Notes under the pieces: generated by a model
What the model was told of the DNA's origin: nothing
The model's input: only the letters and a program-made list of their open reading frames with translations
The model's database searches: none
Origin: an uncultured Bacilli bacterium
GTDB taxonomy: Bacteria > Bacillota_I > Bacilli_A > RF39 > UBA660
DNA: 64,000 nt
Assembly: GCA_934162665.1 (NCBI GenBank)
Contig: CAKPJN010000007.1
Coordinates: 2,479-66,478 of the forward strand
Reading direction: 5' to 3'
Position numbers and translations under genes: made by a program
In this document: positions 5,154 through 26,445 of the stretch, one piece after another
How the letters are laid out: each line of letters opens with the position of its first letter
Numbering within the stretch: the stretch's first letter is position 1

Positions 5154-5669
5154 CTACTTCAAATAATTTTCTATATCACTTTCTCCCTCTATATAATCAC
5201 TAACTTTTCCTTCTTTAAAATGAATAAGCGTATTATCTTTTACTTTTAAGTCATTAACAGAACTAGGATTAGTATTAGAAGAATCACTAATATATTTTTT
5301 ATTTAATGCACTATTAGTATCTACAATATAAACATTTAAATGACTATCCTTATCTTTATAATTACTAACTAAATTAGTATAACTAGATTTCAAGTCACTA
5401 ATTGAATTATCATAATATAACACTAAATACTCATCACCCATATCAAAACTAGAACTTGCTAAAATAGTTTGATAAGATATAGAAACTTCTCCATTACTAC
5501 TAACATTATTAGAAGTAGTAGTATTCGGTTTATTTAATAAATACACTGTAAGTAAATAAAAAACCACTAATACCACAAGAACAATAACCAAAACTTTTAT
5601 AGTTTTAATAACTTGTTCCCTAAAACTATTATTACTATAATTTTTATTTTTATAAGCTTTGTTTTTCAC
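5154..5669 (-). CDS. Hypothetical single-pass membrane protein
   Basis: ORF with a K/N-rich N-terminus and one TM helix (VLVIVLVVLVVFYLLTVYLL). No recognisable domain. Confidence 0.4.
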   Translation of the reverse strand: MKNKAYKNKNYSNNSFREQVIKTIKVLVIVLVVLVVFYLLTVYLLNKPNTTTSNNVSSNGEVSISYQTILASSSFDMGDEYLVLYYDNSISDLKSSYTNLVSNYKDKDSHLNVYIVDTNSALNKKYISDSSNTNPSSVNDLKVKDNTLIHFKEGKVSDYIEGESDIENYLK

Positions 5670-5693
5670 TATATCACCAAAAAAATTATATCA

Positions 5694-5720
5694 CATTTAA
5701 AAAAAGAGGTAAACCCTCTT
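5694..5720 (-). terminator. Rho-independent terminator downstream of lipoprotein gene
   Basis: On the minus strand the hairpin AAGAGG-GTTTA-CCTCTT is followed by a T7 run, just past the stop at 5727. Confidence 0.55.
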
Positions 5721-5726
5721 TAATGA

Positions 5727-6725
5727 CTACTTCATAGTAGGCAAAACATTAATAGACTGTGCAACATCAATAAGTTCATTTTGATTTAAAATATCACTAA
5801 CTAAATAATACTCAATTCCACCAGTTGTCCAAGATAATGAATTATCAGTCATAACACCAATTGTATCCATTAATCTAAAAGGTTCACCATAAGTTGGAAT
5901 AATAGTTGGTTCATCCTCGATATTAACAGTTTCCTCTACTAATAAGAAAGATTTTTCTCCATCAAAAGTCATAATTATTCTTTCTCCATCATCCTTTTTA
6001 ACCCTTTCTTCATTAGTTAATTTAGTACCGCTAGGTAAAGTTAATGGATAAATAGAATCTTCTAAACTACCTGTTTCTTCTACCAAAGAATTATCAATCG
6101 AAACTTCTTTCATAATTTTATCTAAGTCAAAATAATCTTTTTTAAATGTTGGAGAATAATCTATACTTTTATACTTCATAGTCATAATACCAATATTATT
6201 TTTATCATAAACTGTAACTTTCTTTATATTAAGTTTTTTATTAAGTTCAATTTTTTGAGAAACTAATTTACTATTATTAGGATAATTAACTTTTGTAGTA
6301 AAAGTATATCCATTCTTTGTCTCAGTATACTTTTTTGAATCATCATTTTTTATATCATTTACTAAAGCAGACAATAAATATATTTGAGAATTATCATAAG
6401 GCCAATCACTTTGGAATTTAAAACTCTTATTCAACGACGGAGTTAATAAATAAACACCATCTTTATTTTTCAATATGATTTGTGTATGATCATTAGCCAC
6501 ATTAGTAATACTTACCTTATAATTATTATCCTTCTTATAACTAACTTCAATATTATAATTATAAACATCATCATTATTAACTATTTCTAAAGTACCACTA
6601 ACTTTATAACTAGATAACTTAGTTATCTTCTTTGACAAATCATTGACAACATCTTTATCAGTATATTTTCCACATCCACTAACTAAAAAAAATAAGGAAA
6701 GCAACAGCAAACAGATTTTTTTCAT
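5727..6725 (-). CDS. Lipoprotein (lipobox LVSGC), function unknown
   Basis: Signal peptide MKKICLLLLSLFFLVSGC with a lipobox. Sits downstream of cdaA-cdaR in the same orientation. Confidence 0.5.
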   Translation of the reverse strand: MKKICLLLLSLFFLVSGCGKYTDKDVVNDLSKKITKLSSYKVSGTLEIVNNDDVYNYNIEVSYKKDNNYKVSITNVANDHTQIILKNKDGVYLLTPSLNKSFKFQSDWPYDNSQIYLLSALVNDIKNDDSKKYTETKNGYTFTTKVNYPNNSKLVSQKIELNKKLNIKKVTVYDKNNIGIMTMKYKSIDYSPTFKKDYFDLDKIMKEVSIDNSLVEETGSLEDSIYPLTLPSGTKLTNEERVKKDDGERIIMTFDGEKSFLLVEETVNIEDEPTIIPTYGEPFRLMDTIGVMTDNSLSWTTGGIEYYLVSDILNQNELIDVAQSINVLPTMK

Positions 6726-6801
6726 AATTCACCTCATCAATATCTACTTAATTATATGGATATAAACTTATTTTATTACAAAAAAAGAAATAGTATTTTT
6801 A

Positions 6802-8190
6802 CTATTTCTCAGAAATTTTAACTTTAACCTTTTTAGTCTTAGAAACATATGTTAATTTCAAATCATCACCAGTTACCTTGACTTCGACTTCATGTTCTCC
6901 AACACCATAATCTTTTAAATCAATATATGCCTTAATTGAAGATGTTTCTACTACATTAACTATATCTTCACTACCAGATACAACAACATTTACCTTACTG
7001 TCAGCTTCAGATAATGCTTGAACCTTATATTTTTCATTAAGATTTTCAGTAGAAATTTGAATATTATTAAATTCTTTAGTAATAGAATTATCAATAATTA
7101 CTTTAACAGTCATAGTCTTAGAACTTAATTCCGTAATACCAGCTGGTTTTTTCAATGTAATTGTATAATCTTTATTTTTATCAAGACCTTCTACATCAAT
7201 TTCAGCCTCTATACTATTAACCTTATCCAATGAAGCTTTATCACCATAGATAGTTACTTTAGATAAACTAGCATTAATAGATTTAATAGACTTACCAAAT
7301 GCTAATGATCCCTTTGGAACAACTTTTACTGCTACTTCTTTACTTGGTGATGATATTTGTATTTTAGCATCAACCTTTCCAGGAACAATTTCAACATCAA
7401 CTATTTTTCCATTAGTATCATATGCAACTAAAGGAACATCTTTTAAAGTAAGTTCGCCTGCCTTAGGTTTACTAATACTATTAACATCAACTAAAGCCTT
7501 AACAGTCGCAACTTTCTTTAACTTATAGTCAGCACCCTTAATAATAACATTATCTCTATCAAGTTCTACACTATCTATAGATAACTTACTATCAAGACTA
7601 TCTTGATGTAAAATATCAACTGTTAAACTTCTTGTTTCACTAACCTTTTCATATATTGTAACTGTAATCTGTGAAGGATCAAGTTTATAATCTAATGACT
7701 TCAATCTTTGAGAATATTTCAATTCAACCCTATGATTACCAGGTTTCAATCCAGTTAAATCAACAGTCGCTCCTTTCGAAGGAGATTGCTTAGCTAAGAA
7801 AATATGCCGTCTTTGACCTATTAAAGTTATATCAACTTTTTTTGGAAGGCCTTCAACTACATATAATTCTTCATTATAAACAGCTGTTACAGGTTGATTA
7901 TATAAAATTTCAGCATATTGATCTATCATAACAGTAGATTCATTATCAATGATTATAAATACCCCAAAAGCCAAAATCAAACTAACAACAATCAAAGTAG
8001 ACTTTTTACTAATAAATCTATCTATAGACTTACCATTATCTTTAAAAAAGTCAACAATCTTTAAAATAAATTTAGTTAAAGGAGTAATTAACCATTTATC
8101 AAAGAATGAACCAATACGATGAAAAATTTTACCAATTGTTTTACTTATTTTCTTCATATATATCTTCCTCATCCATTTCATCTTCATCAA
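6802..8190 (-). CDS. cdaR: CdaR, YbbR-domain regulator of diadenylate cyclase
   Basis: N-terminal TM followed by repeated YbbR-like beta-rich modules. Lies immediately after cdaA as in Bacillus. The true start is probably an internal Met (about 8157), because the annotated start overlaps cdaA by 50 nt. Confidence 0.6.
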   Translation of the reverse strand: MMKMKWMRKIYMKKISKTIGKIFHRIGSFFDKWLITPLTKFILKIVDFFKDNGKSIDRFISKKSTLIVVSLILAFGVFIIIDNESTVMIDQYAEILYNQPVTAVYNEELYVVEGLPKKVDITLIGQRRHIFLAKQSPSKGATVDLTGLKPGNHRVELKYSQRLKSLDYKLDPSQITVTIYEKVSETRSLTVDILHQDSLDSKLSIDSVELDRDNVIIKGADYKLKKVATVKALVDVNSISKPKAGELTLKDVPLVAYDTNGKIVDVEIVPGKVDAKIQISSPSKEVAVKVVPKGSLAFGKSIKSINASLSKVTIYGDKASLDKVNSIEAEIDVEGLDKNKDYTITLKKPAGITELSSKTMTVKVIIDNSITKEFNNIQISTENLNEKYKVQALSEADSKVNVVVSGSEDIVNVVETSSIKAYIDLKDYGVGEHEVEVKVTGDDLKLTYVSKTKKVKVKISEK

Positions 8191-9279: not shown

Positions 9280-9355
9280 TGGTGCCGATTAAAGGACTTG
9301 AACCTTCGACCTTTACATTACGAATGCACTGCTCTACCAACTGAGCTAAATCGGC
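9280..9355 (-). tRNA. tRNA-Thr (anticodon CGU)
   Basis: Manual fold of the minus strand. Acceptor GCCGATT/AATCGGC, discriminator A and CCA; D-arm GCTC-AGTTGGTA-GAGC; anticodon loop TTCGTAA; T-arm GAAGG-TTCAAGT-CCTTT. The 27:43 pair is mismatched. Confidence 0.65.
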
Positions 9356-10925: not shown

Positions 10926-11213
10926 TTATCCACTATGAGAAGCTCTATTTCTACGTCTCAACATATTTTCAAATGCAGGAAGTCCATAGCTAGAATTATA
11001 GTAATCAGGGAACTCATTTAGATGAGCTAAAGCTATCTTAGCAGTTTTTTCTAAATCATTATCTGTTACATTAGTCTTAGAATTAACCTTACCATGCTCA
11101 AGCTCAATATTTAACCCAACTACAAAATCATCTAATGAAAATTTATCAAACGATATACCCAACTTCTTAGCAATCATTAATGCATCATCTTTATTAAACA
11201 TCTTTATCACCAT
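10926..11213 (-). CDS. Hypothetical protein (DUF5661-like; motif IALAHLNEFPDYY)
   Basis: ORF with an LEHG...IALAHL..PDYY motif. The family assignment is from memory and not verified. Confidence 0.35.
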   Translation of the reverse strand: MVIKMFNKDDALMIAKKLGISFDKFSLDDFVVGLNIELEHGKVNSKTNVTDNDLEKTAKIALAHLNEFPDYYNSSYGLPAFENMLRRRNRASHSG

Positions 11214-16120: not shown

Positions 16121-16612
16121 TATTCTCCTCCTATAATAAATATATATGTAAGGGGAAAAAATTTATTTATAATCAAATATAATTTTATAACATTATAGGT
16201 AAAACTTATATTTGAAATTCTCATTTGTTTTTATCATATTAATATTTATTTTTTCTTTTAAAATTTAAAATCTTATGCTTATATGACTCCTCTTGCATTT
16301 CATAATAATTATTATAAAACTATCTTGATATTCTTTTAATTCTTCTATATTTAAATCATTTGCCATCATTTTAATGAAATAACAAAAGATATCAGAAAAT
16401 TGAATCTGATATCTTCTATATTTTAATCCCAAATAAAAAGTTCGAGTTTGGTATCAATCTGGTGCCACAAAGGTTGTAGTACAACAACTTTTAAGACAAT
16501 AATTATAGGTAGTAATAAATTACTAACTGATATAAGTATAACACGATAACTATTTTAATGAAAGTCAATCTCAAAATATCGATTAAAAATTTGATATATG
16601 TTAAAATATATT

Positions 16613-16651
16613 TGACAGACAAATAGTAATTTAGTGTTAAAATAAATATTT
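16613..16651 (+). promoter_or_regulatory. Putative sigma-A promoter upstream of tetR-ABC operon
   Basis: TTGACA, 17 nt spacer, then TGTTAAAAT (an extended -10-like element), about 90 nt upstream of the ATG at 16744. Confidence 0.3.
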
Positions 16652-16743
16652 ATAAATAAAAGTTGTAAGATATATTTACAATTTTTATTTTTTATAATAT
16701 AATTACAAGCGTTATATAACTTATGTAATAAAGGAGTGATAAA

Positions 16744-17313
16744 ATGCCACCTAGAGTTAAAATAACAAAAGATGATGTAATAAATGCGACTTTAAATATT
16801 GTTAAAACAGAAGGAATTACTAATATATCCGCAAGAAGAATTGCTAAAGGACTTAAAAGTTCAGTTCAGCCAATATTTACTCATTTTGAATCAATGGAAG
16901 AACTAACAAATGTCGCAACTATGAAAATTTATGAACAATATAAAAATTCTATGATAGAGGCTTCAAAAAAAGAAAAATTACCATATAAAGCAATGGGGAT
17001 GGCATATATAAAATTTGCAAAATACTATCCTGAATATTTTAAAGTATTATTTATGCAAAAATCAGATAAAAGTGCGATGGATTTTATGCTATCTGATAAT
17101 ACTGGAAATAATGTTGTTGAAGTTGGAACAGAAATGTCAGGATTAAGTTTAGAAAAGCAGAAAGAATTTCATATAAAAGTATGGATGTTTACACACGGAA
17201 TTGCAAGTTTAATGGCAACTAAAACTATAGAAATGAGTGATAGTGAAATAGAAGATTTACTTGGAAACACGGTTCGAGAAATGTTAATAGGATTTAAAAA
17301 GGAGGAAATGTAA
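16744..17313 (+). CDS. TetR/AcrR family transcriptional regulator
   Basis: N-terminal HTH pattern ..ISARRIAKGLKSSVQPIFTHFESMEEL. Confidence 0.75.
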   Translation: MPPRVKITKDDVINATLNIVKTEGITNISARRIAKGLKSSVQPIFTHFESMEELTNVATMKIYEQYKNSMIEASKKEKLPYKAMGMAYIKFAKYYPEYFKVLFMQKSDKSAMDFMLSDNTGNNVVEVGTEMSGLSLEKQKEFHIKVWMFTHGIASLMATKTIEMSDSEIEDLLGNTVREMLIGFKKEEM

Positions 17314-18254
17314 TGTCTAAAAATGTTATAGAAGTTAAAAATTTAACAAAAGAATATAAAGAATTAAAAGCAATAGATAATTTATCTTTTGAAGTTAAAG
17401 AGGGAGAAATTTTAGGACTATTAGGTCCTAATGGAAGTGGAAAAACTACAACGATAAATTGTATTTTATCATTACTTAATTTTAAAAGTGGAAGTATTAA
17501 AATATTTGATAAAGAAATGAATCCTAATGCTTATGATATAAAAGCAAATATTGGTGTAGTATTTCAAGAAGTTGCAGTATTTGAAGAATTAACAGTAATA
17601 GATAATATTGATTATTTTTGTGGTTTATATATAAATGATAAAAATACTAGAAAAAAATATGTTGAAGAAGCAATAGAATTAGTTGGGTTAGAAAGTTTTA
17701 AAAAATTTTATCCAAAACAATTATCTGGAGGGCTTTTAAGAAGATTAAATATTGCTTCTGGTATAGCACACAAACCTAAATTAATATTTTTAGATGAGCC
17801 AACAGTTGCAGTAGATCCTCAAAGTAGAAATAATATTTTAGATGGTATAAAAAAGTTAAGAGAAAGTGGTGCAACCATTATATATACAACACATTATATG
17901 GAAGAAGTAGAAATACTATGTGATAGAATTATTATTTTAGATAAAGGTAAAATCCTAGTAAGTGGTACATCTGATGAATTAAAGAGCTTAGCAAATATAG
18001 AAGAAAAAATAACAGTAGAAATTATGGAATTAGATAAGAAATATATTGAAGAAATAAAAACTTTAAAGAATGTTGATGAAGTGATATATACTAATCAAAC
18101 ACTAATAGTTACATATAAAAAAGGCAAAAATAATCTAACTGATTTTATAGATTATTTAAAAAAAGAGAGTATTAAATATAATAAAATTTATTCTGAAAGA
18201 CCAACACTTAACGATGTATTTTTAGAATTAACTGGTAAGGAATTAAGAGATTAG
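17313..18254 (+). CDS. ABC transporter ATP-binding protein
   Basis: Walker A GPNGSGKTTT, signature LSGGLLRRL and Walker B IFLDEPT. The start overlaps the tetR stop. Confidence 0.85.
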   Translation: MSKNVIEVKNLTKEYKELKAIDNLSFEVKEGEILGLLGPNGSGKTTTINCILSLLNFKSGSIKIFDKEMNPNAYDIKANIGVVFQEVAVFEELTVIDNIDYFCGLYINDKNTRKKYVEEAIELVGLESFKKFYPKQLSGGLLRRLNIASGIAHKPKLIFLDEPTVAVDPQSRNNILDGIKKLRESGATIIYTTHYMEEVEILCDRIIILDKGKILVSGTSDELKSLANIEEKITVEIMELDKKYIEEIKTLKNVDEVIYTNQTLIVTYKKGKNNLTDFIDYLKKESIKYNKIYSERPTLNDVFLELTGKELRD

Positions 18255-18255
18255 T

Positions 18256-19434
18256 ATGTTTTGGCATAATTTTAAATATTCCTTAAAAACTCTCTTTAAA
18301 AATAAAATGCTAATATTTTGGACATTTGCCTTTCCAATAATATTAGGAACACTTTTTCAAATGGCTTTTTCAAATATAGAAAATAGTGAAAAATTTGAAG
18401 TGCTGGATGTAGCGATAGTAGAAACTGATGAATTTAATAATAACGAAATATATAAAGAATCATTTAAGGCTTTAAGTGATGAAAATAGTGATAGCAGGTT
18501 ATTTAATATAGAATATGTAACAGAAGATAAAGCAAAATCATTATTAGAAAGTAAGGAAATAGTGGGATACGTTCTAATTACTGATAAAGCAAAAGTGATA
18601 ATAAATTCTAGTGGTACTGATGAAACTATTTTAAAATATGCAGTAGATGAAATTACAAATCAGGAAAAAATTATAAATAATTTAGTAGAAATAGAAACTG
18701 GAAATGTATTACAAGAAAATAAAGTAAGTATAAATTATGAAGAAATTTATAAAAGTGCAATTTCTAAAATAGAAAATACAACATCAAATATTGAAGATAC
18801 ATCTAAATCTAACTTAAGTTATACAATGATAGAATTTTATACTTTGATAGCAATGGCTTGTTTGTATGGTGGAATATTTGGTATGGTATCTATTAACAAT
18901 TGTTTAGCAAATATGTCAAGCAAAGGAAAAAGAGTTGCTGTTAGTCCTACCAAAAAAGGAAAACTTATATTGAGTAGTGTTTTAGCAAGTTATATTACAC
19001 AGATAGTAGGACTATTACTATTATTTCTTTACACAATATTTGTTTTAAAAGTTGATTTTGGAAATAATTTATCAATGATTATATTACTTGCTTTAACTGG
19101 AAGTCTTGCAGGATTATCACTTGGCATATTTGTATCTACATTTATAAAAGCAAATGATAATGCTAAAACAGGAATTTTAATTGCATTTACAATGCTTTGC
19201 TGTTTCTTATCAGGAATGATGGGGATTACTATGAAATATGTAATTGATAAAAATATTCCTATTTTAAATAAGATAAATCCAGCAAATATGATTACAGATG
19301 GTTTTTATGCTTTATATTATAATGATACACTAGATAGATATTATTTTAATGTATTTAGTTTACTTGTATTTTCAGGAATTCTTATCTTACTTTCTATAAT
19401 AAGTTTAAGGAGGCAAAAATATGATAGTATTTAA
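18256..19434 (+). CDS. ABC-2 type transporter permease
   Basis: N-terminal TM, a large extracytoplasmic loop, then 5 C-terminal TMs. Adjacent to the ATPase. Confidence 0.6.
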   Translation: MFWHNFKYSLKTLFKNKMLIFWTFAFPIILGTLFQMAFSNIENSEKFEVLDVAIVETDEFNNNEIYKESFKALSDENSDSRLFNIEYVTEDKAKSLLESKEIVGYVLITDKAKVIINSSGTDETILKYAVDEITNQEKIINNLVEIETGNVLQENKVSINYEEIYKSAISKIENTTSNIEDTSKSNLSYTMIEFYTLIAMACLYGGIFGMVSINNCLANMSSKGKRVAVSPTKKGKLILSSVLASYITQIVGLLLLFLYTIFVLKVDFGNNLSMIILLALTGSLAGLSLGIFVSTFIKANDNAKTGILIAFTMLCCFLSGMMGITMKYVIDKNIPILNKINPANMITDGFYALYYNDTLDRYYFNVFSLLVFSGILILLSIISLRRQKYDSI

Positions 19435-20557
19435 AACATTTTTAAAAGTATTAAATAAGTGTAAAATGCCTGTTATAATGTTTACAATTATGCTTATCAT
19501 ATTCGGAGCATTTAGAACAACAACTAATGAAGATACTGGAAACTTTATAGAAACTAAGCCTGATATTGCTATAGTAAATAATGATGAAAACACAGGAATC
19601 ACAAAAGATTTTATAAATTACTTAAATGAAAATGCCAATGTTAAAGAAGTAGATAACCTAGATGATGCTTTATTTTATAGAGATGTAAGTTATATTGTAT
19701 ATATTCCAGATAATTTTAGAGATGACTTCTTAAATGGTAAAAATCCTAAAATAGAAGTAAAAAGTACAGGAGATTATGAATCAAATTTAGCAGAAATGAT
19801 AATTGATAGATATATTAAAGTAGCAAATATCTATGTAAGCGAAAATCTTTCAGAAGATGAAGTCATCAGAAATATAAATGATACTTTAAATGATAAAACA
19901 GAAGTAGAAATAACATCAAAATTAGATGAAACAGGTATTTCAAAATTAGTCTTTTTCTATAATTTTGCTAATTATTCTCTTTTAGCAGGAGGAATATATG
20001 TTGCATGTTTGATTCTTTCTAGTTTTAAAGAAGAAAAAATTAGAAAAAGAACAATAATTAGTAGTATGAATGATAAGAAATTTAATAGGCAACTATTACT
20101 ATCAAATAGTTCGTTTATGATTTGTTTATGGGCATTTTACTCTTTACTAGGTATAGTTCTTTTGGGAGATATAATGTTTACAAAGCAAGGATTAATTTGT
20201 GTTATAAACTCATTTATATTCAGTATGTGCTGTTTAACGATAGCATTTCTAATAGGAAATATAAGCAGTAATAAAAATGCTATAAATGGAATTATAAATG
20301 TAATTGCACTAGGTTCAAGTTTCTTATGTGGTGCATTTGTTCCAATGGAATGGTTACCAAAATCTATATTATCACTTGCTCATATTCTACCATCATATTA
20401 CTATATTAAAACAAATGAATTATTAAAAGAAATAGAAATATTTAATATAGATACTTTAAAACCTATTATTTTGAATATGATAGTTATAGTGATATTTAGT
20501 GTAATATTTGTTGTAATTACAAATGTTATTTCAAACAAAAATAAAAAGATAGATTAG
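19421..20557 (+). CDS. ABC-2 type transporter permease (second subunit)
   Basis: Same topology as the preceding permease and overlaps it by 14 nt. Confidence 0.6.
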   Translation: MIVFKTFLKVLNKCKMPVIMFTIMLIIFGAFRTTTNEDTGNFIETKPDIAIVNNDENTGITKDFINYLNENANVKEVDNLDDALFYRDVSYIVYIPDNFRDDFLNGKNPKIEVKSTGDYESNLAEMIIDRYIKVANIYVSENLSEDEVIRNINDTLNDKTEVEITSKLDETGISKLVFFYNFANYSLLAGGIYVACLILSSFKEEKIRKRTIISSMNDKKFNRQLLLSNSSFMICLWAFYSLLGIVLLGDIMFTKQGLICVINSFIFSMCCLTIAFLIGNISSNKNAINGIINVIALGSSFLCGAFVPMEWLPKSILSLAHILPSYYYIKTNELLKEIEIFNIDTLKPIILNMIVIVIFSVIFVVITNVISNKNKKID

Positions 20558-20618
20558 TAGTTTAAAAAGTTATAAGTTGTTGTTAGATAAATTACAATTA
20601 ATCGAGCAGATTATAAAA

Positions 20619-20658
20619 GGAATATGAATCTATAAAACTCATATTCCTTTTTCTTTTG
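20619..20658 (+). terminator. Rho-independent terminator of ABC operon
   Basis: Perfect 9-bp inverted repeat GGAATATGA/TCATATTCC around an 11-nt loop, followed by TTTTTCTTTT. It overlaps the stop codon of the convergent RHH gene. Confidence 0.6.
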
Positions 20659-20791
20659 AATCTAACATTTTGATGTAACCCATTTCTAATAACTGAACCA
20701 TCATTTTAGTAGTTGATATACCATAGAACTTTGCCATTAATTTTATTCTATCATATAGTTCTATTGGCAGATAAAAATTAAATCTATGCAT
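20639..20791 (-). CDS. Ribbon-helix-helix (CopG/Arc-type) DNA-binding protein, 50 aa
   Basis: Not in the ORF track (below 60 aa). Strong RBS AGGAGG 8 nt upstream of the ATG. Translation MHRFNFYLPIELYDRIKLMAKFYGISTTKMMVQLLEMGYIKMLDSKEKGI carries the classic RFNFYLP RHH beta-strand. Confidence 0.6.
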   Translation of the reverse strand: MHRFNFYLPIELYDRIKLMAKFYGISTTKMMVQLLEMGYIKMLDSKEKGI

Positions 20792-20820
20792 TATATTTGA
20801 CCTCCTTTATTTATTTTATT

Positions 20821-21070
20821 TAGGATGAAAATAACTAAAACTCTCGTGAAATATGAAACAGCAGGATAAGAAACTTGTGCATCATACCTTATCAATCCCT
20901 TATAAAATAAGGAATTAGGTATGTGCAAGTCTTATTTCGTACTTACGAAATTCATCCTACTTTGTAGGTTGATATAAAGGTTAATCCCTTTTTTATTTCT
21001 TATATTTAGGGACTTTATTGTTTTAGATTTTCATCCTAAATGCTAATTTTTAGTGATTTTTGTAGGATGA
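20821..21070. repeat. Cluster of TAGGATGA / TCATCCTA octamer motifs including a palindromic full site
   Basis: TAGGATGA at 20821-28 and 21063-70; its reverse complement TCATCCTA at 20952-59 and 21031-38. The palindrome TCATCCTA-CTTTG-TAGGTTGA lies at 20952-20972. Confidence 0.5.
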
Positions 21071-22258
21071 TTATGTTTTTTGAGATTCTAATTCATTTTT
21101 GAATTTTTCTTTTAAGTCTTTAAAGATTTTACTATATGTTTCATTACTAATATTTGGAATATTACTTAAATCTAGTGTAATAACTCCTAATTTTAAATTT
21201 TGATTTTTAAACCCTTTATCTGGCTTTATAGAAATTAATCGTATTATTTTTTCTAGATTAATATTAGATGAATATTTTATATCTTTTAAATCATCATCAG
21301 TATCTATTTCATAGTAATTAAATTTATATTCGTTTAATGTACTACATAACTTATCAAAATAATTTTTAACTTCTTCTTTACTTTTTACTTCATGGTTCAT
21401 ATTAAGATAACAACCATATTCATCTTTAAATAATCTTAAGTTAAAAGGTACACTATAATTATTATGGTTATCTATTAAATCTTTCAAATAGGAACTTCTA
21501 AATTCTCCATTTATGATATTGATTTTATTATTCGTTTTTAGAGTGGTTAAGTTATCAATATATTTAGCAATTATTCTTTGTTTTTCCTGTTTTTCTAAAC
21601 CATCCCATTTATAAAAATCTTTTAAGTAGTTGTCGGGTTTGGTAAACATTTCTATTTCTTGCTTATCTTCTAGTATTAGCAAATCATCTAAAGTAAAACT
21701 TAAAATTTCATATTGTTTTTGTTCTTTTTGTTTATTTAATAGTTCTTCTCTTTTAAAATCAATATGTTTTATTTCTTTATTAAAATCAATTTCACTATTA
21801 TCTAATTCAGATTTTATAAATTGTGTATAGTAATCATTTAATAGGTTATCTTGTCTTAATAATTCATTAAATAGTAAGATTAAACTTTCTTCTATATCTT
21901 TTTCAGTATAATATGCTTTACAACCTTTACATTTGTAATAATAGTATTTCTTGCCACTAGGTTTTGTACTAGCACATCCACCTAAGAAACAACCACATTT
22001 AGAACATTTAAGTTTATTAATAAATAGATATGTTGCAGTTCTTTCATAGTGCCTAGCATTTTTTTTTGCTTGTATTTGGCAAGAATCCCATTTTTCTTTA
22101 GATACAATAGGCTCTATAACATTTTCATAGTAAGTTGGATGCTTTGTTCTTTTGCCATGAATAAAATCGCCTTTATAAAGTTGATTTGCTAGTATTTTTT
22201 GTATTGTAGAATCATACCAATTTGTTTTATCTAATAATTTTTCTTCGTTAATGATGTC
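21071..22258 (-). pseudogene. Large serine recombinase, 5'-truncated (lacks N-terminal catalytic resolvase domain)
   Basis: Manual translation shows one continuous frame, with no stop from 22276 down to 21071. It contains the recombinase-domain pattern (WYDSTIQKILANQLYKGDFIHGKRTK..PIVSKEKWDSCQ) and the zinc-ribbon pattern (LKCSKCGCFLGGC...YYYYKCKGC) of large serine recombinases, followed by a coiled-coil tail. No resolvase catalytic domain exists upstream, because the frame runs into the antisense of the integrase fragment. Confidence 0.6.
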
Positions 22259-22262
22259 AGAA

Positions 22263-22391
22263 AATAAAGAATTATATCAAATAAGTAAAAAAATTGGCCA
22301 TAGTGACTACTCTACAACAGTTAATAAATATGGCCACTTATCAAATCAAATTAAAAGAGAAATTGCGGAAATTACAGATAAATATATTTAA
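22263..22391 (+). pseudogene. Tyrosine recombinase/integrase C-terminal fragment (about 42 aa including catalytic Tyr box)
   Basis: The plus frame translates NKELYQISKKIGHSDYSTTVNKYGHLSNQIKREIAEITDKYI*, matching the ..LGHS.I.TT..YTHV.. C-terminal box of phage-type integrases. No integrase sequence lies upstream; that region encodes the serine recombinase on the other strand. Confidence 0.5.
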
Positions 22392-22458
22392 AATGGGAGT
22401 AATTTAAAGAGTAAAAATAATAAAAACCGTTACAGTATAACGATTTGAAAACACAAAA

Positions 22459-22493
22459 TGGTGCCAGTAAGGAGCAGGTCTAACAACTCCTAG
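22459..22493 (-). repeat. tRNA/tmRNA 3'-end-like fragment (T-arm + CCA), putative att remnant
   Basis: Minus-strand reading CTAGGAGTTGTTAGACCTGCTCCTTACTGGCACCA has an AGGAG/CTCCT stem and terminal CACCA. It resembles the tmRNA 3' end at 26105-26136 (GGACAGGAGTTCGATTCTCCTCAGCTCCACCA). Confidence 0.3.
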
Positions 22494-22942
22494 ACAAAAA
22501 GATGATAGTAAGTAATACTTACTAACTAATTACATTATACACATTAGCAAAACAAAAAGAAAGTATTTTATTCTACTTTCTTATTTTCTTTAGTATCGGT
22601 CCTTTTTCTTCATGAATTGCTTAATATAGTTTTTCTCTAGCAATTGATGATTGTGGATTTCTCATTTCTTTTATATTTTCTAAAGCATCTAACAATATTT
22701 TTTCTTTTTTTGAAGCGTTTTCTAATTATACTTTATCAATTGACAGATCAACATACAGATAATTATTCTTTATTGATGTTTTCTATATTTACTTTTATAC
22801 TTTTGGAAATGCCATATCCTAAATTAACAACGATTGAACTTACAAATAATATTCCAAAAAGAATTATGTCTTTTGTTAATAATATAGTAGCAACTGAAAT
22901 TACTCCTCACCAACTAATCTATTTATTGTATTTCTAATAATT

Positions 22943-23320
22943 TTATCTTCTTTTCATTAATTTTAAAGTTTTTGTTTGCTCTTCTAATTTATCAATTTTA
23001 CTATCAATAATTTTTTCTGCTATCTTATATCCTATACTATTTTCATTTAATTTCTCAACTATATATTTAAACTCATTAGGAGCTATATCTAAAAATGTTC
23101 TTAATGCTATTTCAAGTACATACAACTTTTTATCTTCATCGATATCGTAATGTCCGACACCTGTTTTTATAGTCTCAAAAATTTCACCATATCTTATATA
23201 AATAATAGTTTTTTCTTGAAATGTACCTCTTATATCAGATTGTTGCTCTATAATAATAAAATTAGTACCGATTACATCATCATACTCGTCTTTAATATCA
23301 TTATGACTTATATCTGCCAT
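22943..23320 (-). CDS. Hypothetical protein (125 aa), island cargo
   Basis: ORF with no recognisable motif. Confidence 0.4.
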   Translation of the reverse strand: MADISHNDIKDEYDDVIGTNFIIIEQQSDIRGTFQEKTIIYIRYGEIFETIKTGVGHYDIDEDKKLYVLEIALRTFLDIAPNEFKYIVEKLNENSIGYKIAEKIIDSKIDKLEEQTKTLKLMKRR

Positions 23321-23380
23321 TTTTTCATCTCCTTTTTGTAATTGTTTATTATAACATAACTTAATATATATGTGTATATA

Positions 23381-23890
23381 TTAAAAATCCTCATATATTG
23401 TTCTTTCAATTTTCTTTACTTTTACTAAATCAGGTCCAATTTCAATATTCTTTTTACATTGTTCCATATAATATCTGCATAATGGTTTACTCCAATTATA
23501 ATATTTTAAAAATAAATCTGAATAACCATAAACAATATTATTAGCAATACCAATTAATTTTTTCTTATCTTCTAATAATTTTTTTTGTGTTTCTAATTTT
23601 TCTTCTTTGGTATCATTTCTATATGATTTTTGAGCAATTTTAATAAAATAGTATTCTCTAATTAGATTATCTAATGTCATATATTCTTCTTTAGTATATT
23701 TATTATCAGTAATTTCTACTCCCCAACCACATAATTCATTATTAGAAGAATCAAATCCACATGTCATGGAAACATTAAATCCCACTACAAAGCCTCCCCT
23801 CAAATAGTAAAAAATTATACCATATTTTCCCACTTTTATAGCATTTTTATAATCATTATTTATTTTCGATAAAAACTCTATTGTTTTCAT
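23381..23890 (-). CDS. Hypothetical protein (169 aa), island cargo
   Basis: ORF whose start overlaps the end of the KilA-N gene by 35 nt. No recognisable motif. Confidence 0.4.
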   Translation of the reverse strand: MKTIEFLSKINNDYKNAIKVGKYGIIFYYLRGGFVVGFNVSMTCGFDSSNNELCGWGVEITDNKYTKEEYMTLDNLIREYYFIKIAQKSYRNDTKEEKLETQKKLLEDKKKLIGIANNIVYGYSDLFLKYYNWSKPLCRYYMEQCKKNIEIGPDLVKVKKIERTIYEDF

Positions 23891-24776
23891 TTATTCTTTC
23901 TTGTAGTAATTCTAATTCTTTAATACCTTTATTATTTTTTAATATTTCCATTTGGTTTCTAGCAGAATTATTCAAACTAATCAATCTTTCACTCTGTGAC
24001 ATACCTAGTTTTATAAACTCTGCATTTGTATTTTCTAAATTATTTAATATTACTAAATGTAATAAATCAGTATAATCTCTCATATTACCATTTTTTGCTA
24101 ATTTAGGATTATTTTCTCTCCATTCTTTAGCAGTCATTCCAAATAATGCAACATTTAATACATCAGCTTCTTCAGCATATACAAATCTTTTTTGTTCTTC
24201 TGTTAGTGTAGGAACTATATAATTTTTAACTGCATCTGTATGAACCACATAATTTAATTTAGATAATAATCTATTAGCGTGCCATTCAATTTTTTGTTGA
24301 TACATTTCATTACTTTTTAATCTTTCAAATTCTTTTATTAAATAAAGTTTAAATTCAGGACTTAACCAACTGGCAAATTCAAATGCAATATCAGGATGAG
24401 CAAATGTTCCACCATCATATCTTCCAGATTTTGAAACAATTCCAATTGCATTAGTTTCTTTAATCCATTTTTGTGGGGACATTTTAAATTTATTACTGCC
24501 TGCTTCATTTTTAAAGGTAGCGAATTCGCCCCCTTTAAAATTTTTATTATTCATACTTTCCCATAGTCCTAAATAAGAAATAACTTCTTTATTTCTCATC
24601 CAATCTCTAATTGGAAGTCTTGGTTCTTCTGCATCAGCATATCTCGCTAAATCAGTAAGTGATATATAATCTACATCTCCAATTCTCATTATTCCTATTT
24701 TATTATCTATAACATTTATTTCAGTTTTTACTAAATCTTTTGACATATTTTTGCTCCTTTCTAAATAGTTAGACAA
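23856..24776 (-). CDS. KilA-N domain protein with C-terminal coiled-coil
   Basis: GRYDGGTFAHPDIAFEFASWLSPEFKLYL matches the KilA-N/APSES core. Confidence 0.6.
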   Translation of the reverse strand: MSNYLERSKNMSKDLVKTEINVIDNKIGIMRIGDVDYISLTDLARYADAEEPRLPIRDWMRNKEVISYLGLWESMNNKNFKGGEFATFKNEAGSNKFKMSPQKWIKETNAIGIVSKSGRYDGGTFAHPDIAFEFASWLSPEFKLYLIKEFERLKSNEMYQQKIEWHANRLLSKLNYVVHTDAVKNYIVPTLTEEQKRFVYAEEADVLNVALFGMTAKEWRENNPKLAKNGNMRDYTDLLHLVILNNLENTNAEFIKLGMSQSERLISLNNSARNQMEILKNNKGIKELELLQERINENNRVFIENK

Positions 24777-24831
24777 ATCTGACTAATTGTCTTCCTATAT
24801 CAATTTTACCATAAAATTTAGTTGATTATCT

Positions 24832-26091
24832 TTATAATTCAATATCATCATCTTTTTTCTTATTTTCTTTATATTTTTTACTAATAGGTAAATCATATAT
24901 TTTCTTATATTCTTTTTCAGTTATTATATTACTTTCTCTTAAATCATCTGTAATATCCTTATATTTACTTTTTAATATATTACCAAATAATCCTTTAACT
25001 CTTTCAGATATAAAATCTACAATTTCATTAACTCTTTGCTTCCAAGATTCTACTTTTGCTTCAAGTTCAATTATTTTTTTATTTAATGTATTTATTGTAT
25101 TTTTTGAAACCATTAACAATCTTTCTTTTTCTTCTAATTTAACTTTTAAATCTTCATTATCATTTGTTAAATTTCTAATAGTATTATGATTATCTTCTAA
25201 ATCTTTTTTTATATTTTCAAGTGATAAATTATAATTATTAATACTTTTAAAGTTTTTATTATTCTTATCAATATCATTTATATACTCTAATAATTTATCT
25301 TTTTTATCATTAGAAATAATTAAGTTGTTGTTTGATAAAGGTTGTTGTTTTAAACTTTCTAATATTTCTTTAACTTCGTTTGATTTCACATTTATCTTAT
25401 CTACATTTTTATTTATTTCAGTTATTTTCTTATGTTGTTTTTTATAATCATTTTTCAACTTATCATAATTTTTCATTTGTCCAACACGATAATCTTGATT
25501 GCTTCCTTGTTCTTTTTCTTTTAATTTAGCATTCAAGCCATAAACTTTATTAAAATCATTTATACAAGATTCTCTAAGTTTATCTTGAATAATTTTTAAT
25601 AATTCTATTGTAAATACATCAGATTTTCCTACTTGTTTATTCATACCTGTTTTACAATTTTCTTTTACTGGAACACCAACTATATGCAAGTGTAGAGAGT
25701 ATTCATCAAAATGGCAAGTCGCATTTGCTACATAGAAGTCTGGAACTATTTCTTTTAAATCTTTAATTAATATCTTATTACTTAAATTTTCAATATAGAT
25801 ATTTGTTTCATAATTAAATGCAAGAAATGTAATACCTTTAATAATTATTCTATGTGGCTCTACATAAGATAAGTTTGTTCTTTCTATTGTTCTAATTGAA
25901 CCTTTTTGTATTTCACATTTAGTATTGCAGAAACTACATACAAATTCTAGTTTCTTTCTTAATGCTTCTTCAATATCAATTTCTTGCTTAATAATATTTA
26001 CCATTAAATCATCCCTTTCTTTTAAACACAACAAAAAATCAATTCCATTTCTAGAATTGATATTTATTAGTAAAGTTGAACTAATGTTCAA
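24832..26091 (-). CDS. MobV-family relaxase / plasmid recombination enzyme (Mob_Pre) with coiled-coil C-terminus
   Basis: HxDE..HxH motif CHFDEYSLHLHIVGVP sits at residues 127-136, the position of MobM motif III. Followed by a long K/E/N-rich coiled-coil. The start codon is TTG 13 bp from the tmRNA 3' end. Confidence 0.6.
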   Translation of the reverse strand: MNISSTLLININSRNGIDFLLCLKERDDLMVNIIKQEIDIEEALRKKLEFVCSFCNTKCEIQKGSIRTIERTNLSYVEPHRIIIKGITFLAFNYETNIYIENLSNKILIKDLKEIVPDFYVANATCHFDEYSLHLHIVGVPVKENCKTGMNKQVGKSDVFTIELLKIIQDKLRESCINDFNKVYGLNAKLKEKEQGSNQDYRVGQMKNYDKLKNDYKKQHKKITEINKNVDKINVKSNEVKEILESLKQQPLSNNNLIISNDKKDKLLEYINDIDKNNKNFKSINNYNLSLENIKKDLEDNHNTIRNLTNDNEDLKVKLEEKERLLMVSKNTINTLNKKIIELEAKVESWKQRVNEIVDFISERVKGLFGNILKSKYKDITDDLRESNIITEKEYKKIYDLPISKKYKENKKKDDDIEL

Positions 26092-26104
26092 CCAGATTCT
26101 TTAA

Positions 26105-26445
26105 TGGTGGAGCTGAGGAGAATCGAACTCCTGTCCGAAAATAAAGCTACATAAACTTCTACAAGTTTAGTTAACTAATTAAATTCATCTAATTATAAAG
26201 TAGTTAACACCCAGATAATTAGACTAGACTATTAATTTCATTTTAGCTATAGTCATAACTAAAACATAATCTGTTAAAAATTGAACCTCCATATATCTAG
26301 CAGATAAGATATATTTCAGTGCATCCCATTAAATTAAGCGAATGCTAATTGATTTCTGTTTCCAGTTATTTTTAATTTGCTTTAACGTAATGCGTACGAC
26401 TTGCCATTTATGCTCTAATATTCCCGTCGAAACCAAGTCAGCCCC
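26105..26445 (-). ncRNA. ssrA: tmRNA (ssrA)
   Basis: 5' GGGGCTGACTTGGTTTCGACGGG and 3' GGACAGGAGTTCGATTCTCCTCAGCTCCACCA tRNA-like ends. Internal tag frame ..AGC AAA TTA AAA ATA ACT GGA AAC AGA AAT CAA TTA GCA TTC GCT TAA (..NQLAFA*). smpB lies immediately upstream. Confidence 0.8.

Follow-up and report, generated by a model that had tools for sequence, protein, structure and literature searches.

We analysed a window of 64,000 nucleotides from the genome of an uncultured Bacilli bacterium (GenBank assembly GCA_934162665.1, contig CAKPJN010000007.1), concentrating on a minus-strand open reading frame (ORF) that adjoins the transfer-messenger RNA (tmRNA) gene ssrA. The tmRNA gene lies at 26105-26445 on the minus strand, where it was found by ARAGORN and, at full length, by the Rfam model RF00023 (151 bits). 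As called on the window, the ORF starts with TTG at 26091 and runs down to 24832 (419 codons), and the gap between the CCA end of the tmRNA and this TTG is exactly 13 nt. A first-pass annotation of the sequence, which was right about these coordinates and this distance, described the ORF as a full-length relaxase of the MobV family whose control region or origin of transfer (oriT) had been lost on integration, unless the relaxase itself had acted at the tmRNA site. We propose instead, with a probability of about 0.85, that the ORF at 24832-26004 is an in-frame fusion of an unrelated small gene, here called s90, with the back two-thirds of a MobV relaxase gene, and that it represents a relic of a decayed element.

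Start codon, leader and anatomy of the ORF

The likely start codon is not the TTG but an in-frame ATG at 26004, located 87 nt 3' of it and preceded by a ribosome-binding site (AAAGGGA, 26012-26018). The s90 homologues begin with M-V-N-I-I-K at precisely this ATG, so that the start agrees with more than 7,500 related proteins. The exact 390-aa product is recorded on at least 11 public contigs, while no public contig record was found for a product of 419 aa. With the start at 26004 there is therefore a 100-bp leader between the tmRNA CCA end and the gene; the first-pass annotation had itself named a downstream in-frame start with ordinary spacing as evidence against its reading, and the TTG has to be given up.

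The stretch from the CCA end to the ATG (26005-26104, minus strand) is non-coding, because it represents the conserved left-end leader of an element family, carries frame-breaking indels and folds into two hairpins (fold z-score -3.74). Relative to its close relatives, the window leader has a 2-nt, frame-breaking indel, and the TTG at 26091 sits within the stem of the conserved hairpin 1 (26075-26092). Nearly identical leaders are found 3' of tRNA-Leu, tRNA-Thr, tRNA-Phe and other tmRNA genes, as well as after the right ends of other elements. The second hairpin (26033-26061), which is followed by a T-run, is a predicted intrinsic terminator, because in the 17 leaders compared the T-run is invariant and three of the six stem pairs are kept through compensatory changes. 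A sigma-70-like promoter was not found on the minus strand of the leader. This terminator would stop the tmRNA transcript, and expression of s90 or of the chimera would occur only via read-through. The last five nucleotides of the tmRNA gene, CACCA (26105-26109), are at the same time the left copy of a 5-bp repeat flanking a genomic island (the attL core), and the junction between tmRNA and leader reads CACCA followed directly by TTAAAGAATC.

Alignment and tblastn divide the 390-aa product into two parts of different descent. Residues 1-83 (25756-26004, minus strand) are 94-97% identical to free-standing proteins of 90/104 aa, the end of the last s90 helix being cut off, and residues 84-390 (24832-25755, minus strand) correspond to residues ~150-458 of MobV relaxases of 457-459 aa, with 81-86% identity. 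When the genes of an intact relative were used as tblastn queries, window 26004-25744 matched s90 residues 1-87 (94% identity) and window 25767-24883 matched Mob residues 148-442 (86% identity). A search for homologues among 5.8 billion proteins returned as the closest ones PF01076 proteins of 457-459 aa (80-86% identity), whose alignment covers no more than the C-terminal 76-80% of the query; the N-terminal 100 aa alone gave 2,342 matches, nearly all of them free-standing proteins of 90-104 aa, the best being 95-97% identical. The assignment to the MobV family is thus correct for the C-terminal 307 residues, which descend from a MobV/Mob_Pre relaxase, and wrong for the N-terminus, which comes from s90.

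The mob-derived part retains the coiled-coil tail and motif III (25684-25713), in which the HxDE..(P)HxH metal site noticed by the first-pass annotation is indeed present as H98-F-D-E-Y-S-L-H105-L-H107, with the nearly invariant S and P of this motif replaced by Y and L. In both respects, motif III and the C-terminal coiled coil, the protein resembles MobM of plasmid pMV158, the MOBV1 relaxase (PF01076; PDB 4LVI). However, it differs from MobM in lacking everything before approximately MobM residue 112, including H22, and in having an unrelated 83-residue domain instead. The seemingly expected position of the motif is a coincidence: counted from the TTG, its first histidine is H127, close to H126 of MobM, through the addition of 29 spurious and 83 unrelated codons. 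Profile searches agree that the protein is not a full-length relaxase. Unlike MobM, it falls below the Pfam threshold, with no Mob_Pre match at E<=0.1, and the NCBIfam MobV model gives 21.8 bits against a cut-off of 100, covering only 56 residues around the motif; beyond this sub-threshold match, the Pfam, NCBIfam, PHROG and PADLOC searches of the ORF yielded nothing except coiled-coil noise. Searching the PDB sequences with the chimera gave nothing relevant.

The missing part is the one that carries the catalytic centre. The ~150 N-terminal residues of the homologues hold an invariant H-N-x-R (motif I, H49-N50-x-R52), and the window protein has the s90 sequence in the aligned region. In MobM the active-site histidine is H22, and the H22A substitution abolishes relaxation (PMC13436267). 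H49 of the intact relatives is probably the equivalent of H22, as suggested by the sequence pattern and by the fold match of the whole domain rather than by a residue-level alignment. The AlphaFold2 model of the intact domain has strands at residues 7-11, 61-65, 116-123, 158-166, 173-183 and 191-193; the chimera keeps the last three and lacks the first three, and its junction maps to the end of helix 140-154. We conclude from the sequence that the chimera should be unable to nick DNA and is not a relaxase, because the motif I catalytic histidine and about three core beta-strands are gone. The idea that s90 could be a diverged Mob N-terminus restoring the relaxase fold was rejected, since hhalign detected no homology between s90 and the N-terminus of Mob (probability 0.1%).

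The s90 proteins themselves are numerous: a profile search collected more than 7,500 of them, 90-104 aa long, with the invariant motif TN..Y.EPH and with no match in Pfam, PHROG or PADLOC. The AlphaFold2 model (pLDDT, the predicted local distance difference test score, 89.8) comprises a strand, a helix, seven strands and a helix, and a fold search with it found no match in PDB (best E 0.56) or BFVD (best E 0.28). A two-cysteine zinc finger was considered for this protein and is unsupported: the cysteines vary in the alignment derived from the loci, though they are invariant among closer homologues. The s90 gene is always the first gene of the family elements, as in the window (25756-26004, minus strand), in locus L086 (4289-4558) and in P0129 (L and P numbers are our labels). 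One may guess that it acts as a recombination directionality factor or a regulatory factor.

The element family and its candidate origin of transfer

The intact relatives came to light by way of a full-length homologue and in a set of 185,579 species genomes, and the architecture was mapped systematically in 87 loci. They come from uncultured low-GC gut Bacilli, "Tenericutes"/"Mollicutes"-like bacteria and metagenome-assembled genomes of Erysipelotrichaceae. Intact elements are ~6.7 kb long and keep one order: the 3' end of a tRNA or tmRNA gene, a leader of 96-139 bp, s90, a large serine recombinase, ~160-750 bp of non-coding DNA, Mob, cargo, and a right end finishing with ...GC(A/T)CCA. The series tmRNA, s90, 627-aa recombinase and Mob is found in L002, L004, L005, L008, L011 and L012, the recombinase of 627 aa (in L008 at 5508-7388) consisting of the Resolvase, Recombinase and Zn_ribbon_recom domains; mob lies ~2.6 kb from the tRNA/tmRNA junction.

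Among the 74 s90 copies, 42 lie 96-139 bp after the end of a tRNA or tmRNA gene (tmRNA 13, Leu 10, Gly 10, Thr 6, Phe 1, Met 1, Arg 1). Another 31 copies follow the C(A/T)CCA motif typical of right ends (26 of them verified by eye), and tandem arrays are therefore indicated. The N-terminus of the recombinase follows s90 in 45 of the 74. All 38 distinct tRNA/tmRNA-to-leader junctions fall exactly after CCA and, together with 26 right-end-to-leader junctions, all are at C(A/T)CCA. The core is CTCCA at both ends in the tRNA-Gly subfamily and its right ends; elements at the tRNA genes for Leu, Thr, Phe and Arg or at the tmRNA gene have CACCA. Across the 64 junctions (loci L003-L087) the leader subtype co-varies with the core, TAAGGAAATACGCTCGAAC standing against TTAAAGAATCTGGTTGAAC, and this co-variation of sequences points to subfamily-specific specificity of the recombinase.

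The Mob protein of the intact relatives is a genuine MobV relaxase. The representative P0001 matches Pfam Mob_Pre with 45.9 bits, the family profile finds MobM (4lvi) with E 4e-5, and the AlphaFold2 model (pLDDT 82.5) shares the MobM fold, all of the top six Foldseek matches in PDB being MobM (probability 1.00, target-normalised TM-score 0.60-0.68). Motif III starts at H166 in these proteins. The closest annotated plasmid genes encode a "plasmid recombination protein" of Fusobacterium and Leptotrichia plasmids, with 35-41% identity.

The first-pass annotation recommended looking for an oriT upstream of mob in homologous elements. A conserved region lies there in ~40 elements, with the pattern ACGGATTCTAAGGTG..CCTTAGCTCCC-ATATCTTG..CAAGATAT-xTAGGGAGTTATACATCTTG, in which the stems covary and the inverted repeats overlap. 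The oriT of pMV158 likewise consists of overlapping inverted repeats just upstream of mob (PMC5863519), and the region in the intact relatives, similarly placed, recalls it and may be regarded as a candidate oriT. Its sequence suggests a nick at GGGAG/TTATAC, within ...CAAGATATCTAGGGAG/TTATACATCTTG. The nhmmer profile built for this region detected 54 sites in the relatives. In the window it gave nothing significant (best E=1 at 61.9 kb, 36 kb away), searches by exact pattern and by blastn were negative too, and the inverted repeats of the island are only AT-rich palindromes, the leader hairpins and the right-end palindrome, none of them oriT-like. The claim that no oriT lies near the start of the ORF is thereby extended to the whole window, where this departure from MobM-type systems arises because the entire segment from the recombinase through oriT to the 5' part of mob is missing.

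The family unites a large serine recombinase and a MobV relaxase with a CCA-end target in the tmRNA gene and in many tRNA genes, and appears to be new in this combination. No description of it was found in the searchable literature, which is weak evidence for novelty. From the family anatomy, the serine recombinase would catalyse the insertion at the CCA end, and the T-loop GTTCRA (18 nt before the gene end) and a TYGAAC ~14 nt after the end would serve as its half-sites. We would venture, at somewhat less than even odds, that this is a very abundant undescribed family of integrative and mobilizable elements (IMEs) with a large serine recombinase, in which attB is a generic tRNA/tmRNA 3' end, s90 leads the element behind a terminator, and recombinase-less relics are gained and lost precisely via sister recombinases acting in trans. 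Under that reading, attB would comprise the T-loop GTTCRA, the 5-bp core N-CCA at the gene end and a TYGAAC half-site contributed by the element or by the native flank.

The fusion junction and competing explanations

The s90 genes end with ...ATT AAA GAT TTA GAA GAA TAT ATT AAA AGT ATT TAA, and mob genes read, at the place of the joint, ...GAT TTA GAA AAA CTT ATC CCA TCA TTT... or ...TAT TTA AAA GAA TTA GTT CCC GAC TTT.... The window has ...ATT AAA GAT TTA up to the joint and AAA GAA ATA GTT CCA GAC TTC... after it. The joint comes after s90 codon 83 and at approximately codon 150 of mob, inside a microhomology of 5-9 nt (ATTTA / GATTTAGAA). Compared with the anatomy of the intact relatives, an internal deletion of ~2.7 kb would have fused s90 codon 83 in frame to about codon 150 of mob, and it may have arisen via microhomology-mediated recombination. 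Such a deletion would have eliminated three things: the gene of the recombinase, the oriT together with the promoter region of mob, and the N-terminal half of the relaxase with its motif-I histidine. The lack of an oriT and of room for a promoter, emphasised by the first-pass annotation, is real, and it would go back to this internal deletion and not to loss on integration.

A second chimera (P0047/L001) has the same junction position and a different Mob parent. The two fusions probably arose independently, because each half of the window protein is far closer to unfused genes (94-97% and 86%) than to the P0047/L001 chimera (71% and 46%). The sister chimera is decaying: its copy in L009 differs from L001 by 7 nt, all seven differences being non-synonymous, and one of them changes E to a stop inside HFDE. 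In the window protein, the mob part deviates at 4 of the 60 columns that are at least 97% conserved among 84 full-length relatives, the mean of the others being 0.52; the changes are K91Y, I97C, P104L and R168S, three of the four in or beside motif III.

In-frame deletion products are widespread in the family. L022 carries s90 residues 1-12 fused to Mob from residue ~168, L029 carries s90 residues 1-70 fused to Mob from residue 196, and in P0167 s90 residues 1-80 are joined to the extreme C-terminus of Mob. The recombinase is fused to Mob in L002, L028, L047 and L063, and internal deletions of Mob occur in L027 and L052. Examples of the coordinates of such chimeras are 14662-16383 in L002, 652-1503 in L028 and 7959-8849 in L022; a tandem duplication of s90 is also among the in-frame chimeras, and P0121 is among the chimera-bearing loci. 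Gene callers and Pfam label several of these chimeras as "fusion proteins" (Resolvase+Mob_Pre).

Several observations weigh against regarding the window ORF as a mere relic, and they would fit a functional, selected protein that is not a relaxase, for example a putative s90 activity tethered to the Mob coiled coil, or a dominant-negative or regulatory partner of incoming relaxases. In a genome rich in AT, the frame stays open over all 390 codons, and at least 11 assemblies encode an identical protein, on contigs from several samples. The s90 part keeps all family-invariant residues except E84, with a ratio of non-synonymous to synonymous substitution rates (dN/dS) of 0.06 against L086, so that this moiety might still function. 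For the mob part, dN/dS against intact relatives is 0.25-0.28, which does not clearly exceed the baseline of 0.15-0.20 for close intact pairs. The recurrence of the junction position in the P0047/L001 lineage, with another Mob parent, can be read as selection for the fusion. In addition, the role assigned to the serine recombinase at CCA ends is drawn from association. However, the island-bearing contigs are 99.93-100% identical to the window, so that the identity of the protein is uninformative on selection; no mismatches in the chimera were found among the island-bearing strains, whose variation is too small for a selection test. The sister fusion gathers only non-synonymous changes, including a stop codon; the family contains many fusions with arbitrary junctions; the chimera has no promoter; and the last s90 helix is cut. 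We consider a selected function of the chimera unlikely: the protein is most likely a relic, with a small chance that its s90 moiety retains a residual role.

The explanations offered by the first-pass annotation fare worse. A full-length divergent MobV relaxase read from the TTG, deprived of its oriT and promoter on integration, would account for the position of HxDE..HxH at residue 127, near MobM H126, and for the weak NCBIfam match; we hold it to be very improbable, as it is opposed by the absence of motif I and of a Pfam Mob_Pre match, by an N-terminus 94-97% identical to an unrelated free-standing protein, by the TTG lying within a conserved non-coding hairpin whose surroundings carry frame-breaking indels in close relatives, and by the lack of any record of the 419-aa product. 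Mob_Pre proteins entered the literature as enzymes that recombine plasmids at RS_A/oriT, and the gene adjoins the junction, which could favour insertion at the tmRNA end by Pre-type site-specific recombination. Against this stands the anatomy of the intact elements, in which the same leader abuts CCA ends in the presence of an intact large serine recombinase: mob is ~2.6 kb away from the junction, whose neighbour is s90 and then the recombinase. The junction of CACCA with TTAAAGAATC is also unlike the family oriT, and family elements in which mob was not detected, e.g. L095, occupy the same point, so we see hardly any likelihood of the relaxase having driven the insertion. An assembly artefact, in the form of a chimeric contig, might be suspected since the relatives are metagenome assemblies in which repeated elements can be mis-assembled, but at least 11 contigs, which stem from independent samples and independent assemblers, carry the same junction with 100% identity, and the same type of junction occurs in L001 and L009; the probability of an artefact is close to nil. 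The in-frame fusion left by decay accordingly stays our preferred reading, and the ORF represents an ordinary decay product, while its family appears to be a new variant among the serine-recombinase elements.

The island, its alleles and related mobile elements

The fusion gene belongs to an island of 9,645 bp (16460-26104, minus strand, including one CACCA at 16460-16464), delimited by blastn of empty-site loci L092 and L100 against the window. These loci are 100% identical to window 37232-26105 and then resume at 16464 with a 5-nt overlap; the island is inserted exactly after CCA and flanked by CACCA at 26105-26109 and 16460-16464. The 5-bp repeat was detected only by comparison with the empty-site strains, and a second copy of the tmRNA 3' 34-mer was not found in the window at up to 3 mismatches, the only match being the tmRNA itself.

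The island consists of two decayed units in tandem. Unit A (22457-26104) contains the leader, the chimera, a KilA-N gene, two small ORFs and a right end (22457-22539, minus strand, ...CTTACTGGCACCA), which is 94% identical to an intact right end by blastn of L002 14000-14082. Unit B (16460-22456) has neither leader nor s90 and includes a recombinase fragment, a small ribbon-helix-helix (RHH)-like ORF, ABC-transporter/TetR cargo and a family right end. The fragment (21071-22276, minus strand) corresponds to residues 197-618 of the large serine recombinase (tblastn, 49% identity, E 4e-108); it is 5'-truncated with an open frame, and it has no start codon and no Resolvase domain, only a partial Pfam Recombinase match and a weak Zn_ribbon_recom match. 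The right end that unit B shares with the whole island (16460-16540, minus strand), placed by sequence, empty site and blastn breakpoints, finishes with ...AAGTTGTTGTACTACAACCTTTGTGGCACCA, after which the native tmRNA flank GATTGATACCAAACTCGAAC begins. As cargo, unit B carries genes for a TetR-family regulator and three ABC-transporter genes (16744-20557, plus strand); they were recognised from the ORFs and from the Pfam labels of identical genes in L093, L094 and L096, and fall inside the segment absent from empty-site strains.

Near-identical strains, found through the SmpB protein of the window, show three alleles at the tmRNA site. The empty site is represented by L092 and L100, and the island as in the window by L093, L094, L096 and L088-L091. 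The third allele, in L095 (11130-18988), is a different family member at the same CCA point, with a distant s90 (98 aa), a 70-aa ORF, a 592-aa serine recombinase, a SNF2 helicase and a DNA methylase; mob was not detected in the segment examined. L095 shares the sample ERZ27287826 with the island-bearing L090, and its element could supply a recombinase in trans.

By its gene content, neither unit of the window island is expected to excise by itself: the island cannot move alone because both units lost recombinase function. At the same time, the existence of empty, relic and other alleles on backgrounds with 99.9-100% identity suggests that the island was gained recently or lost precisely. For a relic without a recombinase this implies, we infer, either that a recombinase acted in trans or that the flanks recombined; the island is probably still mobile, or was so until very recently, by means of a related recombinase in trans, as a cis-mobilizable element would be. 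Excision of the whole island would give a circle with ...CTTTGTGGCACCA joined to TTAAAGAATCTGGTTGAAC, excision of unit A alone would give ...CTTACTGGCACCA joined to TTAAAGAATC, and an empty attB with ...CTCCACCA joined to GATTGATACC would be left.

Firmicute IMEs combining a large serine recombinase with a MobV relaxase are known, for example Tn4451/Tn4453 (PMC5704250). The intact relatives resemble them in being small and in carrying cargo, one large serine recombinase and a MobV relaxase preceded by an oriT. They also share flanking repeats that are very short and an arrangement in tandem arrays that include decayed copies. However, Tn4451-type elements target GA dinucleotides or intragenic sites, whereas the family considered here targets the CCA ends of tRNA and tmRNA genes and has a terminator leader and s90 before the recombinase. 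The window copy departs further by its loss of recombinase and relaxase function: there is no integrase of its own and no relaxase with an oriT, while the short repeat and the empty site are present.

Islands at ssrA are known from Dehalococcoides, where a CcrB-like serine recombinase, DsiB, is associated with insertion in the T-loop and a 20-bp direct repeat (PMC3146451). They are similar to ours as serine-recombinase islands of the tmRNA gene arranged in tandem downstream of ssrA, and some of them lack integration genes and are deemed cis-mobilizable. In contrast, the island described here is at the CCA end and has a 5-bp repeat; the Dehalococcoides integration module comprises six genes on the reverse strand with no MobV relaxase, and our family also uses many tRNA genes. 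The Islander paper considers serine integrases as not known to target tRNA genes (PMC4383910). Its tyrosine-integrase islands share with the present one the position at a tRNA/tmRNA 3' end and an intact target gene. They differ in having a displaced target fragment of at least 15 nt, whereas here only CACCA is repeated, and the only trace resembling a tyrosine integrase is a 45-aa ORF with no Pfam match.

The term CIME (cis-mobilizable element) is used for decayed integrative and conjugative elements (ICEs) or IMEs (PMC5704250). The island corresponds to it in lacking recombination and transfer genes, in keeping attL-/attR-type ends with no intact recombinase, relaxase or oriT, and in its tandem arrangement and polymorphism among strains; a difference is that unit B has lost its left end. 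Judged by the motif or by weak similarity, the ORF would be labelled a relaxase and the island mobilizable; the apt annotation is that of a relic, or a pseudogene formed by fusion, within a decayed element that has no oriT. In uncultured gut Bacilli the family is frequent, with tandem arrays, in-frame chimeras and candidate defence cargo, and the three alleles (empty, relic, other element) offer a natural system for studying the movement of recombinase-less relics in trans.

The candidate defence cargo of unit A is the KilA-N gene (23856-24776, minus strand; Pfam KilA-N 2.8e-20, PHROG 2657), which matches the PADLOC family PDC-S22 over its full length (3.5e-120). It is the only gene with relatives in the phage collection searched, these being in Staphylococcus phage EW and Streptococcus satellite phages. 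Mismatches between otherwise identical strains cluster in this gene, 12 within 24065-24116 (L094) and 7 within 24372-24555 (L088), which suggests gene-conversion tracts or diversifying change. The two small cargo ORFs beside it (22943-23890, minus strand), 23381-23890 (134 aa in public records) and 22943-23320 (125 aa), have no family match in Pfam, NCBIfam, PHROG or PADLOC, and their order is kept in strain-level relatives.

In unit B, the 50-aa ORF at 20639-20791 (minus strand) has a weak RHH_5/Arc-like match (E 0.009), and ~280 bp of non-coding DNA upstream of it (region 20639-21070) contain repeated TAGGATGA / TCATCCTA, which could be operator sites. The 45-aa ORF at 22254-22391 (plus strand; MSENKELYQISKKIGHSDYSTTVNKYGHLSNQIKREIAEITDKYI) resembles, on visual inspection, the C-terminal end of a tyrosine recombinase. 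Its position is between the truncated serine recombinase and the right end of unit A, and it may be a trace of an older island or a chance resemblance.

The native flank of the tmRNA gene, seen in empty-site L092 at 11129-11210 (window 16380-16459, minus strand; GATTGATACCAAACTCGAAC...GATATCAGATTCAATTTTCTGATATCTTTTG), has its own terminator and resembles element leaders such as GATTGATAGGAAACTCGGAC of L002. This resemblance may mean that the elements imitate the native flank or that the "empty" site holds the leader of an even older element. The window also contains a tRNA-Thr(CGT) gene at 9280-9355 (minus strand), which ends with GGCACCA followed by TT and is unoccupied; the same tRNA is occupied in L035, L020 and L015.

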